The notes under the pieces are model-generated. The model was not told the origin of the DNA. It did no database searches and worked only from the letters and a program-made list of their open reading frames with translations. Below are positions 3,856 through 20,767 of a stretch of DNA of 64,000 nucleotides, piece by piece. Source of the DNA: Escherichia phage T4_ev151; the sequence record LR597660; one strand, given 5' to 3'. How positions within the stretch are numbered: the stretch's first letter is position 1; each line of letters opens with the position of its first letter. Made by a program: the position numbers and the translations under genes.

Positions 3856-4074
3856 TTATTTCTCTAATATAAAATAAAAATCATCATCTGTTAAATGATA
3901 CCGATAGTTTAATTCTACACCATTAGATTTAAAAGCGGTATCATACGGATTTTCTGGATCAATATCAATGTCAAGAGCTAAAACTTCCCTGAGATACATT
4001 TTAAGTAAATAGGGAATAGCTTCAACTTCAGGTATTTCTTCCAAGAATCCGGAGAGGTTAATCGTTAGCCTCAT
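3856..4074 (-). CDS. Hypothetical protein
   Basis: 72-aa ORF, ATG start, 17-nt overlap with gene 55 3' end. Confidence 0.5.
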
Positions 4075-4693: not shown

Positions 4694-4963
4694 TTATCTA
4701 AGTAAACAGTATGCTTGGAATACTTTTTCCATCATCTTTTTAAATTCATGAATATCTATATAATGACTAGTTAAATCAGCATGATATAAAAAGTCTAAAA
4801 ACTTTTCATGTGTATTAACATATTCACTTTCATTTAATTCAGAAACATGGCTTTCCCAATATCCAACACCAGTCTTATTTGGGAAAAATGAAATTTTCAT
4901 GTATTGGTCAACATAGAAAATGCCATAATTTTCAATAGTAATAGAAATATTAATAAATTTCAT
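4694..4963 (-). CDS. Hypothetical protein
   Basis: 89-aa ORF, ATG start, ATGA overlap with upstream gene. Confidence 0.5.
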   Translation of the reverse strand: MKFINISITIENYGIFYVDQYMKISFFPNKTGVGYWESHVSELNESEYVNTHEKFLDFLYHADLTSHYIDIHEFKKMMEKVFQAYCLLR

Positions 4964-17079: not shown

Positions 17080-17109
17080 ATAGTACCACAGAGGAACGGT
17101 CTTGTAAAC
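17080..17109 (-). promoter_or_regulatory. T4-type early promoter with conserved leader
   Basis: Minus strand GTTTACA, 18 nt, TGGTACTAT, then conserved ACAACTATCAACTAC leader. Confidence 0.55.
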
Positions 17110-17111
17110 AA

Positions 17112-17414
17112 CTAAAAGAAACTTCTTTCACAATTTTTTCCACTGAACCACGCGCTCACTGCTTTCTTAGTCTCAGGAGCAGTGTTATCCATAAACCATT
17201 CAAAGGCAGCCTTTTTATGATTCTGGAGGGCTTCTCGGGCTTTAATCTGCTCACGGTCTATTAACACTAACATATGAGCCTTTCTTGTCACCATGGGCTT
17301 CTTATGATTCTTGGAGTATTCCCAGTCATTTGTCCAACGCATTGTCGTTGCGAACTGATGAACCGCGTCTTTAATTTTAGTTTCGTAAATTTCACGAGCC
17401 TTTGAGTATAACAT
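17112..17414 (-). CDS. Hypothetical protein
   Basis: ATG at 17414 after GGAGG; track 17426 possible. Confidence 0.5.
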   Translation of the reverse strand: MLYSKAREIYETKIKDAVHQFATTMRWTNDWEYSKNHKKPMVTRKAHMLVLIDREQIKAREALQNHKKAAFEWFMDNTAPETKKAVSAWFSGKNCERSFF

Positions 17415-17496
17415 CATTACCTCCATTTACCAGTTTAATTCTAGTCATCTTTTTGATGGCAGTCCATATAATCTATTTCTGAACTGCCTTTTTGTC

Positions 17497-18216
17497 TTAG
17501 GATTCTTCTAAATGTCTTTTCTGAAAAGTTGATACCATACTACGATACGGTTCATTTGGATACCCGTGTTTTATAGCTTCCTTTGTAAATTTTCTCCATC
17601 CATATTTAGTTTCTTTCCAAAGCTCGAATAATTCATCTTCATATTGCCATATAGTTAAATGAGAACGCTTTGCAGCTTTAATTCCATTAATATGCTTTTC
17701 TTTTACTACAGGATTGCTTAGTTTCTTTTTAATAATATTACTAACTTTTCTAACAAAAACTGGGTCCTTATATCGTTGCGAAGTTTTTATTGAAGTGTTT
17801 AATTTAGCTTCCGGCGTGGATGTGACCTCTTTCATCTTTTTCTTCATATGCTGTATATGATTAGGATTTTTCCATAAATTTATAGAATGCTTTTTGCATT
17901 TTATCCTAGTTTCATCTGCAACCTTTCCTCCTTCACCCCCGTATGACAGGTTAACACAGTTTTTTCCATATTTCAATTTACCTGCCATGATATATAATAT
18001 TTCAGCTTGTACCATTTTATCATAATTATCAAAAACTTCTAAAACCGTTTTTGATAATATGTGGTCATTTGACACTTTTACACGTTCTATATAATTTCCA
18101 CTACCAACATACGAATCATTGATGTTATTAGTTATATGTCGACCATAATAATATTTCTTAATACCTGTCTTTAAATTTAATATTTCAGTTTTATAGATAG
18201 TAAAATATTTTTTCAT
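17497..18216 (-). CDS. GIY-YIG homing endonuclease (Seg-like)
   Basis: 239 aa; KKYYYGRH...SYVGSG GIY-YIG core near N-terminus; lysine-rich C-terminal region. Confidence 0.75.
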   Translation of the reverse strand: MKKYFTIYKTEILNLKTGIKKYYYGRHITNNINDSYVGSGNYIERVKVSNDHILSKTVLEVFDNYDKMVQAEILYIMAGKLKYGKNCVNLSYGGEGGKVADETRIKCKKHSINLWKNPNHIQHMKKKMKEVTSTPEAKLNTSIKTSQRYKDPVFVRKVSNIIKKKLSNPVVKEKHINGIKAAKRSHLTIWQYEDELFELWKETKYGWRKFTKEAIKHGYPNEPYRSMVSTFQKRHLEES

Positions 18217-19181
18217 TTTAATAATACCGTTTCAGCGATTTCTTCCCAACCGTTTTTGTCGGTCATAATAAAGTCAGCAAGATAAAGAGCAGTACGCAGT
18301 GAAACATTACGTAAACGATTAACATTGACTTTCATCCATGATAATGCTTTATAAGTTTCTTCATCAGAAAGACCGCGCTTTTGCATCATGTCAGTTGAAA
18401 GAATAACATCTTCAACCCTGACCATAATTTCTTCATTAGTGTGAACACCCAAATCCAAATAAACTGAGCGGGACACTAATGCTTGTAAATGTGGAGCAAG
18501 TTTAGTACCACGGTCTAATTCGCGGTCAATGTCAACGTTTGTGATAAAAACAATCGTTCCTTTAAATTCAAACTCACGCTCAATGCCTTTTTCTTCTAAG
18601 TAAGAAGATGCGGTGCTCCAGCAGACTTTACGGGTCTCTCCAGTGTCCAGAGCAGCTTTCAGAAGATTAAGAATGTCCATATCAGAGAAAACATCCACAT
18701 CATCAATCAAAAGGACAGAATTCTCTTCACGATTATTCCAAAGCTGCTCATAAAGACCAATACCAGAGATTTTACCATTAATGCTTTTATACTCAATGTA
18801 TCCAATATCATTTGCTTTATTTAAAGCTTTATCTAAAGAATACGTTTTACCAATACCCGCCGCACCAGAGATAATTAATGAACGAATATTTCCGTTAATA
18901 ATACCGTTCGTCATCATTCCCATAACATTAAATCTTTTATTAATGCGGGTTTTCATATCTTCATATGATTCTTTAACTTCTTCAACTTTTACACCATCAT
19001 ATGAAATGTCTGATTTGTAAACCCAAACACCGCGACGCTTACCGTCAATTTCAACAAAAACTTTACCATCTCCTTGTGCATCTATCGGAGCATTATCTGG
19101 GAACCATTCGCCCAAGAGTTCAAAAGTTCCAGAGATTTCTTTACCGAAGTAGATACCCTTATTGATAGTTACAGTTTTCAT
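18213..19181 (-). CDS. P-loop NTPase
   Basis: Walker A GAAGIGKT, Walker B LLIDDVD; ATG 19181 with GGAGAATAAA SD (track TTG 19193). Confidence 0.65.
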   Translation of the reverse strand: MKTVTINKGIYFGKEISGTFELLGEWFPDNAPIDAQGDGKVFVEIDGKRRGVWVYKSDISYDGVKVEEVKESYEDMKTRINKRFNVMGMMTNGIINGNIRSLIISGAAGIGKTYSLDKALNKANDIGYIEYKSINGKISGIGLYEQLWNNREENSVLLIDDVDVFSDMDILNLLKAALDTGETRKVCWSTASSYLEEKGIEREFEFKGTIVFITNVDIDRELDRGTKLAPHLQALVSRSVYLDLGVHTNEEIMVRVEDVILSTDMMQKRGLSDEETYKALSWMKVNVNRLRNVSLRTALYLADFIMTDKNGWEEIAETVLLK

Positions 19182-19215
19182 TTTATTCTCCAAATCCGTA
19201 TCAGTTGATAGTTGT

Positions 19216-19245
19216 ATAGTACCATAAAGCTTTATGCTTGTAAAC
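19216..19245 (-). promoter_or_regulatory. T4-type early promoter with conserved leader
   Basis: Minus strand GTTTACA, 18 nt, TGGTACTAT plus CAACTATCAACTG leader. Confidence 0.55.
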
Positions 19246-19269: not shown

Positions 19270-19293
19270 AAAAAAGGAAGCCCGAAGGCTCCC
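19270..19293 (-). terminator. Rho-independent terminator
   Basis: Minus RNA GGGAGCC-UUCG-GGCUUCC then U7, right after the stop at 19296. Confidence 0.65.
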
Positions 19294-19295
19294 TA

Positions 19296-20309
19296 TCATT
19301 TATAATAACTTCGGTGGTTTTCAAGATAGACCTTCTCAAGGAAGTCATCCCAGAAACTCATGTCTACTTTTTGCTGCATACCGTTCTTAGAAGCTTCAGT
19401 AGATGCTGCTTCTACTTGATCGACCACATCTTCCAAAAACTCTTGAACCGTTTTAAATGGATGTTTACCCAACTTCACGTCGAGAATAAATGGAGCATCT
19501 TGGAGTGGATAAACCAAGTCACCAGTTTTGTAAATTTCCAATAGTTGGAGTCCACCACGACAAGCATGACTCTGTGCTTTCCAGTCAATGCCCTCATTCG
19601 CTTCAGCCTTACGAGCGCGTTCACCGTATTCAGCATCTAATTTGTTCAGTGACTGCTTAAGCTCAATAAGAGAAAGCGTTGTCTGATATTTACGACCCAA
19701 CACTGTGTAAAACGTTTGTGGGCCTGTTTTCTCATGATTATGGAACACCCATTCACAGAATTCGTTTTCTGGAAGACGATGCTTAATATCTTCAACTTTA
19801 GTGCGACGCTGCTTAATAGAACCATCTTCTTGGTAATCAACCCATTGCTCGGGGATTTGATTAACTACTTTCAATACATCACGTAATGCAGCCAAACGAG
19901 AACCCTTGACACCGTATTTAGAAGCTTGCTTGCGGACATATCCTAAATAGGATTTCATGTTAGTCGTATAAAAACGAGAACGATTGTCTTGAATAAACTT
20001 CCACACATCAGGCAAATCAGATTTAACCACTAACTCAGGTGGAGTATGAAGCATATCTAATGCTACGGTTTCACCATCTGCTGCTAATTTAAAGAAATAC
20101 TTAAGACTGTATAGTTCATGGTCAATATCATCTTTAGTGTTTTTAGATGATGTGTTGTTGGTGTTTTTACTCATGTGCTCTTTGACGTTTCCGATAAGAA
20201 TATCGCGAGCAGGAGGAACAAAGATTTCTTTAAAATCTACATCAGATTCTGGGGTAGAAGTTCCATAAAGATGACTACCAAAATAGCTTTTCATTACTGT
20301 TTTCATCAT
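19296..20309 (-). CDS. Putative nucleotidyltransferase (Pol-beta superfamily fold)
   Basis: 337 aa; N-terminal GSHLYGTSTPESDVDF (G[GS]x9-13Dx[DE]) and downstream DMLH. Confidence 0.55.
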   Translation of the reverse strand: MMKTVMKSYFGSHLYGTSTPESDVDFKEIFVPPARDILIGNVKEHMSKNTNNTSSKNTKDDIDHELYSLKYFFKLAADGETVALDMLHTPPELVVKSDLPDVWKFIQDNRSRFYTTNMKSYLGYVRKQASKYGVKGSRLAALRDVLKVVNQIPEQWVDYQEDGSIKQRRTKVEDIKHRLPENEFCEWVFHNHEKTGPQTFYTVLGRKYQTTLSLIELKQSLNKLDAEYGERARKAEANEGIDWKAQSHACRGGLQLLEIYKTGDLVYPLQDAPFILDVKLGKHPFKTVQEFLEDVVDQVEAASTEASKNGMQQKVDMSFWDDFLEKVYLENHRSYYK

Positions 20310-20767
20310 TCAACCTTATATTCAATAACAGGACATACTTTAGCTTTACGAGCTTTTAAAAATTCAACAATAATCGATTTCTTGGGTTGAATAGGAGGTA
20401 AACCTTTATACGCCCTATCAATATTTTCTACGTGTAAAGCATAATCCTTTTTCCATTTATAATCTTTATATTTTTCACGCAAATGTGCAGGAATAACAAA
20501 TGAACCGATAATAAGTAAAACAACCAAAAGCGCAAGTATAAATGCCGATGGAAGAAGAGTCCATAAACTACCGAAAATAAGCCAACGTTGTAGGCTTTCT
20601 GCACAAATAATTGTTAGCCCTACGAGTATAGCACACCCAAAAATAGAAACGAAAAATGTAGGAATGGCAATAGACCAAAAATATGCGCATAGTGTCTTAG
20701 GTCGTTGCCATTCATCGTTAAACAATTTGAATAATTTATAGTGCCAAGAGTTTTCATTAATAATCAT
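20306..20767 (-). CDS. Integral membrane protein
   Basis: 153 aa, three or four hydrophobic helices. Confidence 0.55.
   Translation of the reverse strand: MIINENSWHYKLFKLFNDEWQRPKTLCAYFWSIAIPTFFVSIFGCAILVGLTIICAESLQRWLIFGSLWTLLPSAFILALLVVLLIIGSFVIPAHLREKYKDYKWKKDYALHVENIDRAYKGLPPIQPKKSIIVEFLKARKAKVCPVIEYKVE

Follow-up and report, generated by a model that had tools for sequence, protein, structure and literature searches.

Introduction

The closest described systems to the gene analyzed here are the Seg endonucleases, SegA to SegG of phage T4 and SegH of phages T6 and U5. Like the gene in question, theirs stand free between other phage genes and are distributed patchily among the T-even phages. 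In T4, those free-standing Seg and Mob enzymes that have been characterized cleave DNA at a distance of hundreds to thousands of bp from the genes encoding them (PMC2988022). Two seg-like genes each have been described in RB14, RB32 and RB51, with their locations not stated (Petrov et al. 2010, PMC2993671), and no endonuclease appears at the nrdC.10-nrdC.9 site of T4 in Table 1 of a review on the mobile elements of that phage (PMC2988022).

A stretch of 64,000 nucleotides from Escherichia phage T4_ev151 (LR597660), called the window below, includes an ORF that an earlier note had described as a Seg-like GIY-YIG endonuclease gene. Here, this locus was compared with its counterparts in other phages and in metagenomes. 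The comparison indicates that the ORF very probably encodes a homing endonuclease of the free-standing Seg type known from T-even phages, and that this enzyme would spread by cutting the end of nrdC.10 in seg-less genomes.

Results

The gene and its neighborhood

The window phage belongs to Tequatrovirus and shares 95-97% identity with its closest public records over 22 kb. The ORF, as found in the ORF listing of the window, lies on the minus strand, starts with ATG and encodes 239 amino acids followed by a stop codon (Table 1). As the earlier note had it, the ORF is located between two nrdC.x genes, nrdC.10 upstream and nrdC.9 downstream, and its start codon (18216-18214) overlaps the TGA of nrdC.10 (18215-18213), forming the ATGA that had been pointed out before. 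The upstream gene had been taken for a P-loop NTPase and its translation does include a Walker A (GAAGIGKT) and a Walker B (LLIDDVD) motif; its Pfam AAA/STAND matches are below threshold. The start of nrdC.10 is a TTG at 19193 in the mechanically defined ORF, as opposed to the annotated ATG at 19181. The seg-like gene stands alone, with no intron or intein, and both neighbors are complete. The insertion left nrdC.9 untouched, and the native intergenic sequence is kept from position 17500 downwards.

Other features of the region were recorded. The gene nrdC.11 (19296..20309, minus strand) matches the RlaP nucleotidyltransferase family (3.5e-11). In many public records nrdC.11, nrdC.10 and their neighbors are labeled 'thioredoxin', which looks like a carry-over from nrdC. 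Upstream of nrdC.11, where T4 has the HNH endonuclease gene mobD, the window has a hydrophobic ORF of 153 amino acids (20306..20767, minus strand), and the RB32 equivalent, ORF096c, is annotated as 'replaces mobD'. This replacement is a second optional-gene swap less than 3 kb from the seg-like gene. The nrdC.11-nrdC.10 spacer of HY03, slur08, SH7 and 303Ecol101PP contains one to three extra small ORFs (49-87 amino acids; L003 1623-2032, L004 1623-2304, L056 724-924), which are absent from the window and from T4. Finally, the 5′ part of nrdC.9 (17310..17385) has a dense cluster of substitutions with respect to RB32 and T4 that also occurs in a minority of phages, some of them seg+ and some seg-. 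This cluster is the result of mosaic recombination and is unrelated to the cassette described below.

Table 1. Location of the features of the seg-like locus in the window
Feature	Coordinates	Strand	Basis or remarks
Seg-like GIY-YIG homing endonuclease ORF (RB32ORF093c)	17497..18216	-	ORF listing, nucleotide identity, RB32 annotation, PHROG, PADLOC
N-terminal GIY-YIG domain, aa 1-97	17926..18216	-	TIY8, Y23-Y24-G25, H27, D34-x-Y36-x-G38-S39-G40, E72, N89, G93-G94
Helical linker, aa 98-170	17707..17925	-	Least conserved part; most amino acid polymorphisms
C-terminal helical module, aa 171-239	17500..17706	-	Presumed DNA-binding/target-recognition domain
Mobile cassette, ~731 nt	17501..18231	-	Comparison of 9 seg+ and 14 seg- Tequatrovirus loci
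Recoded last six codons and stop of nrdC.10	18213..18233	-	GAA ACG GTA TTA TTA AAA TGA (ETVLLK-stop); holds the seg start codon; part of the cassette
nrdC.10, P-loop NTPase	18213..19181	-	RB32/T4 annotation, Walker motifs, weak AAA_14 match (6e-5)
nrdC.9 (DUF7203), downstream neighbor	17112..17426	-	Pfam DUF7203 (1.9e-15), annotation
Early-type promoter-like site upstream of nrdC.10, TTTACA-17-TACTAT with TG	19216..19244	-	Consensus scan
Terminator-like hairpin after nrdC.11, preceding the 19244..19216 promoter-like site	19275..19294	-	
Weak sigma-70-like match upstream of nrdC.9, TGGACT-17-TAGAAT	17438..17466	-	9/12 match
Conserved 9-bp hairpin in the native nrdC.10-nrdC.9 spacer	17458..17488	-	RNA fold

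Family, motifs and predicted fold of the protein

The query protein gave no Pfam match even at E=10, PF01541 (GIY-YIG) and PF19835 (SegE_GIY-YIG) included, and no NCBIfam model match; PDB sequence searches were empty both with the single protein and with a profile of 40 sequences. Because these direct family and structure searches were empty, the family was assigned through PHROG and PADLOC, the homologs, the motifs and the predicted fold. The protein matched PHROG 314 'homing endonuclease' (1.8e-30) and the PADLOC HEase model (5.5e-8). By tblastn it shares 31% identity with T6 SegH over 151 amino acids (residues 1-151) and 27.5% with T4 SegB (residues 21-186). A full HMMER scan was needed to reveal the family, with 1419 homologs at E<=1e-3, whereas a word-indexed protein search found only two clusters. 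Among 40 aligned homologs, Pfam assigned SegE_GIY-YIG to 14, GIY-YIG to 10 and NUMOD3 to 12. The NUMOD3 matches of the homologs fall in the linker region, and the query has no such match.

Nine residues are invariant in the alignment of 40 sequences (A2): Y8, G25, D34, Y36, G38, G40, E72, N89 and G93, with E72 and N89 also invariant in alignment A3. Y23 (>=90%), H27 and S39 are nearly invariant in A2. Besides the GIY, YIG, Glu and Asn signature, these positions include the Seg-type 'DxYxGSG' insert. The GIY motif corresponds to T6-I7-Y8, on the strand formed by residues 4-14 of the predicted model, and the YIG motif to Y23-Y24-G25, on the strand of residues 20-29. In the AlphaFold model (mean pLDDT 83), a strand-strand-helix-strand-helix domain at the N terminus is followed by a helical linker and then by a three-helix bundle at the C terminus; the N-terminal domain is predicted to have the alpha/beta fold of GIY-YIG nucleases. 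Judging by their positions in this fold, E72 and N89 would be the counterparts of I-TevI Glu75 (catalytic, metal-binding) and Asn90. The candidates for the equivalent of I-TevI Arg27 are R45, in the helix of residues 42-47, and R26, beside G25; neither column is invariant in A2. The designation of the protein as a Seg-like GIY-YIG endonuclease is, then, backed by profile matches, motifs and fold, without a direct Pfam match.

The nine Tequatrovirus copies compared have 16 synonymous and 9 nonsynonymous variant codons (pN/pS ~0.13), and eight of the nine nonsynonymous variants are located in the linker, at residues 122-170. This ratio, together with the ORF being intact in 9/9 copies, indicates that the protein is under purifying selection. 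The empty Pfam, NCBIfam and PDB sequence searches could be taken as a sign that no nuclease is encoded here and that the variable spacer merely holds a reading frame that arose by chance or was misannotated. The probability of such a reading is practically nil: it is refuted by the conservation of the ORF in 66 phage genomes, the pN/pS value, the number of homologs, and profile, motif and fold evidence that all indicate GIY-YIG. The ORF that the earlier note had singled out is real.

Distribution and previous annotation

The gene was found in 66 of ~505 Tequatrovirus records, the latter number being those with the flanking genes at 95-99% identity. It is present in a single copy with 95-99.9% nucleotide identity, always between nrdC.10 and nrdC.9. 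Carriers include T6, RB32, RB14, RB51, RB68, RB5-10, RB33 and AR1, and the closest copy is that of phage 132 (99.9% nucleotide identity). The full length of the 77-nt filled junction is matched in the 66 seg+ records and in no other record, and the empty junction was found in 294. T4 (AF158101.6) has nrdC.10, a 94-bp spacer and nrdC.9, with nothing between them; T2, RB27, HY03, pSs-1, teqhad and others are also seg-less. The doubt expressed in the earlier note that T4 has an endonuclease at this position was therefore justified. The same note had proposed a synteny comparison with T4 and its relatives, in which an ortholog at the same place would count against the idea. The ortholog is absent from T4, but ~13% of the close relatives carry the gene at the site. 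Since patchy presence is what is predicted for a mobile endonuclease gene, this outcome strengthens the interpretation.

Beyond Tequatrovirus, a homolog with 46% identity was found in 7 of ~143 Jiaodavirus records, including Klebsiella phage ValerieMcCarty03, and the gene is absent from all 33 nrdC.10 loci of other genera from IMG/VR. A different seg-like gene, ~29-30% identical over nearly its full length, adjoins tk in other T4-like genera, as seen in Klebsiella phage Roth19, IME540 and vb_EcoM-VR5 (H113, H115, H116).

The RB32 record names the gene ORF093c and describes it as a 'putative site-specific intron-like DNA endonuclease; similar to seg'. RB32ORF093c and the copies in T6, RB14, RB51, RB68 and AR1 are the same gene as that of the window, with 99-100% protein identity and with matching length, position relative to nrdC.10 and nrdC.9, and junctions. 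The window phage differs from these carriers in being another mosaic, with flanks 96-98% identical to any record and the gene 99.9% identical. A literature search for RB32ORF093c, nrdC.9 and nrdC.10 found no study of the gene. The gene is not new but an already annotated, uncharacterized member of a well-known class.

Borders of the cassette

Nine seg+ and 14 seg- Tequatrovirus loci were compared to locate the borders of the insertion. All fixed differences between the two classes are found either at 18231..18219, in the last six codons of nrdC.10, or at 17516..17501, at the 3′ end of the seg-like gene. As the differences are confined to these two short stretches, the mobile unit must be a block of ~731 nt. 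It replaces ~30-40 nt of the empty site (GAGGTTACTCTTCTGAAATAAATTCATAAGAGGMCTTCTA), and its borders are identical in the 9/9 copies examined. No cassette-linked polymorphism was found left of 18232 or right of 17500, across nrdC.10 and nrdC.9. In a comparison over 1.6 kb of each flank, which contain 233 and 205 polymorphic columns, none of these was linked to the cassette and the largest frequency difference was 0.64.

The cassette is carried by several flank haplotypes; AACGGTTGG and AACCATTGG, located 20 nt from the junction, each occur in both classes. In the same genomes, nucleotide diversity (pi) was 0.009 in the cassette and 0.017 and 0.031 in the flanking genes. The low diversity combined with the several haplotypes fits repeated transfer of the cassette between backgrounds. 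The absent linkage with flank markers could, however, also be due solely to the general recombination that T-even phages undergo.

These comparisons bear on where the enzyme would cut. A Seg-type homing endonuclease could act on a distant site, as SegF, SegG and SegE do, in which case the altered end of nrdC.10 would be a hitch-hiking remnant of the donor lineage. Distant action agrees with the behavior of the T4 free-standing endonucleases described above. A carrier that protects its distant site by a sequence difference should show seg-linked polymorphism there, and with none in 1.6 kb on either side the protected site would have to be further out, or else the protection would not be in the sequence. 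The true cleavage site could indeed be outside the flanks compared.

The recoded end of nrdC.10

In empty sites nrdC.10 ends with GCT GAG GTT ACT CTT CTG AAA TAA (AEVTLLK-stop), and in filled sites with GCT GAA ACG GTA TTA TTA AAA TGA (AETVLLK-stop). Between the two, 11 of 20 bases are changed and the peptide is nearly unchanged. The six terminal codons read GAGGTTACTCTTCTGAAATAA in the empty allele and GAAACGGTATTATTAAAATGA in the filled one. All 21 seg-less loci examined outside Tequatrovirus, which come from many genera, have the tail EVT(L/M/Q)L(K/R)-stop, as does HY03. The tail ETVLLK-stop was found only beside seg, that is, in the Tequatrovirus copies and in the metagenomic T4-like contig L057. 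The nrdC.10 of L057 is 77% identical and its seg homolog 43% identical to those of the window; nonetheless, the DNA at the junction is nearly the same (GAAACGGT(T)TTATTAAAATGA(G)AAATAT) and the ATGA overlap is kept. A scan of the IMG/VR and JGI metagenomes with the 21-mer of the recoded tail found no T4-like case without seg; it returned one known and one new seg+ locus, as well as three chance matches in unrelated contigs.

Two phages have tails of their own. That of T4 is frameshifted with respect to the consensus (GCTACGGGTTAC..., at about 2565-2600 of the AF158101.6 locus, equivalent to window position ~18233) and encodes ATGYSSEINS-stop in place of AEVTLLK-stop. The tail of the IMG/VR phage L008 encodes ATVTLLK-stop. 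Both changes are exactly at the left border of the cassette; they may be either scars left by repair or alleles by which the presumed target escapes.

The preservation of nearly the same amino acids in the recoded tail is also what would be expected of a homologous tail acquired from another phage, and the tail could be such a donor-lineage relic and not an immunity allele. Judging from the junctions, recognition or cleavage would most likely take place in the conserved region around the stop codon of nrdC.10, and the recoded tail would be the allele that confers immunity; we consider this proposition to be about evenly balanced.

Homologs at the same site in other phages

The homologs in ValerieMcCarty03 (Jiaodavirus) and in the metagenomic contig SRR25011262_2357 are 43-46% identical to the window protein, colinear over their full length and encoded directly after nrdC.10. 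The copy in the contig has the same ATGA overlap and ETVLLK tail as the window. Unlike these, the Jiaodavirus cassette has the tail EVTQLRG-stop and a 12-nt spacer before the ATG. Comparison with the empty relatives ValerieMcCarty04 and JD18 placed the left border of the Jiaodavirus cassette after GCTGAAGTAAC, inside the last codons of nrdC.10, where it replaces ...ATGCTGAAATAA as the Tequatrovirus cassette does.

Two of these observations weigh against a distant cut. In two genera, different cassettes have their left border in the same few codons and have removed the same CTGAAATAA core, and the DNA of the tail is almost unchanged between cassettes whose endonucleases have diverged to 43% identity. 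Taking all the points together, cleavage at a distance with a hitch-hiking tail appears unlikely, although it deserves to be kept in mind.

Identity among the three same-site homologs is 24.7-42.5% in the linker and 52.6-57.6% in the end domains, the C-terminal module being the best conserved part. The strong conservation of the end domains fits a DNA target shared by the three proteins.

In Jiaodavirus phages with an empty site, the next gene is preceded by a stem-loop (GGGAGGAGAAATCCTCCC) and a GAGG ribosome-binding site, both of which are lost where the cassette is present (L059/L060 at about 1290-1330 versus L042 at about 3990-4000 and 4715-4725). Expression of the downstream gene may differ in the Jiaodavirus carriers.

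Expression signals

No Shine-Dalgarno-like sequence precedes the ATG of the seg-like gene (...GAAACGGTATTATTAAAATG). Because of this and of the ATGA overlap, translational coupling to nrdC.10 is plausible. A hairpin masking the ribosome-binding site was looked for around the seg start, and the region folds like shuffled sequence (z -0.58). A search for a late promoter (TATAAATA) that could serve separate expression of seg found none within several kb. The early-type promoter-like site upstream of nrdC.10, whose hexamer pair also precedes nrdC.8 at 17080..17108 (minus strand), is the likely source of a transcript including nrdC.10 and seg.

The earlier note had also placed an early promoter immediately downstream of the seg-like gene. 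The only candidate there lies upstream of nrdC.9, and its match is not above the rate expected by chance, as the promoter scan found 17 such sites versus 12 +/- 3.3 expected. It is without the GTTTAC and TG features of the clear early-type promoters at 19244..19216 and 17108..17080. The candidate belongs to the native spacer, outside the cassette, and is identical in T4 and other seg-less phages. A promoter at this location is a possibility with weak support.

The candidate overlaps a 9-bp hairpin (GGCAGUUCA...UGGACUGCC) that is also outside the cassette and kept in seg-less phages; the RNA fold of 17415..17510 has an energy of -18.1 kcal/mol (z -2.87). As it is not followed by a T-run, the hairpin is not an intrinsic terminator.

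Intact and decayed copies

Some copies of the gene have decayed. The one in RB3 is split into 159 and 96 amino acids, and those in AR1 and vB_EcoM-G157lw (G157lw) are reduced to 165 and 104 amino acids. The gene matches in RB10 and FL12 come as two pieces. In a metagenomic copy, L065, the A-run that directly follows the ATG is one A short, which causes a frameshift (about 1101-1110). Homing endonuclease genes are expected to show such a mixture, with some copies intact and others in decay.

The same mixture could be read as that of a former homing endonuclease that is now immobile, either an inactive relic or a DNA-binding or nuclease protein domesticated by the phage, for instance for competitor exclusion or regulation, its patchiness being due to ordinary recombination and loss. 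The truncated or split copies of RB3, AR1 and G157lw and the frameshifted start of L065 agree with this idea, as do the lack of a clear equivalent of I-TevI Arg27 and the failure of the protein to match any Pfam GIY-YIG model; furthermore, Table 1 of PMC2988022 gives no demonstrated activity for SegD of T4. Nevertheless, an immobile gene is quite improbable when the other catalytic signature residues are invariant and when every one of the nine copies examined has an unbroken ORF that is subject to purifying selection. A cassette that is less diverse than its flanks and found on several flank haplotypes, and three diverged homologs that keep the same genomic site, also speak against immobility.

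Discussion

The comparisons described above can be arranged into a model of how a mobile Seg-type endonuclease would spread at this locus, in which we infer nuclease activity, cut position, immunity and mode of expression from the sequences. The gene would probably be co-transcribed with nrdC.10 from the early-type site at ~19244..19216 and translated at a low level, probably by ribosomes that terminate and reinitiate within the ATGA overlap. When a carrier and a seg-less relative, for instance T4 or T2, infect the same cell, the enzyme would break both strands of the relative's nrdC.10 at or close to its 3′ end, the likely region being ...GAGGTTACTCTTCTGAAATAA..., which encodes EVTLLK and the stop codon. 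Recombinational repair with the seg+ genome as the template would then provide the cut genome with a copy of the 731-nt cassette. The six recoded codons brought by the cassette (ETVLLK) would keep nrdC.10 whole and at the same time destroy the presumed recognition sequence, and as a consequence the carrier would be immune.

A more general form of this model can be put forward tentatively, at slightly less than even weight: that this Seg lineage behaves as an intron endonuclease without an intron, which cuts its own insertion point, EVT(L/M)LK-stop, and whose cassette provides a tail that both completes nrdC.10 and gives immunity. If this were true, the target would be predictable from genome comparison alone, and the enzyme would depart from the distant-cleavage rule of the T4 Seg and Mob enzymes that have been studied. 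A cut at the insertion site would be atypical, since the known T4 free-standing enzymes cut at a distance. Taken alone, one more optional selfish endonuclease gene among the many of the T-even phages carries little weight. The practical value of the locus is in the exact borders of the cassette and in a prediction about cleavage and immunity that can be tested on the last six codons of nrdC.10.

In comparison with known systems, I-TevI is encoded in the td intron of T4 and the window gene is not located in an intron. HMMER detected no sequence similarity between the two proteins, their C-terminal domains are different, and the linker of the window protein has no evident zinc finger. The likeness to the Seg enzymes is closer. 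The window protein resembles them in its N-terminal GIY-YIG domain, which includes the 'YxGKHS...DxYxGSG' elaboration, and in the helical region after it, which is presumed to bind DNA. However, identity to them is only ~27-31% and confined to the N-terminal two thirds of the protein, the insertion site is another one, and the C-terminal module is common only to a subset of uncharacterized homologs. Finally, the Seg enzymes studied so far cut at a distance, whereas the borders of the cassette in the window suggest a target at the insertion site itself.
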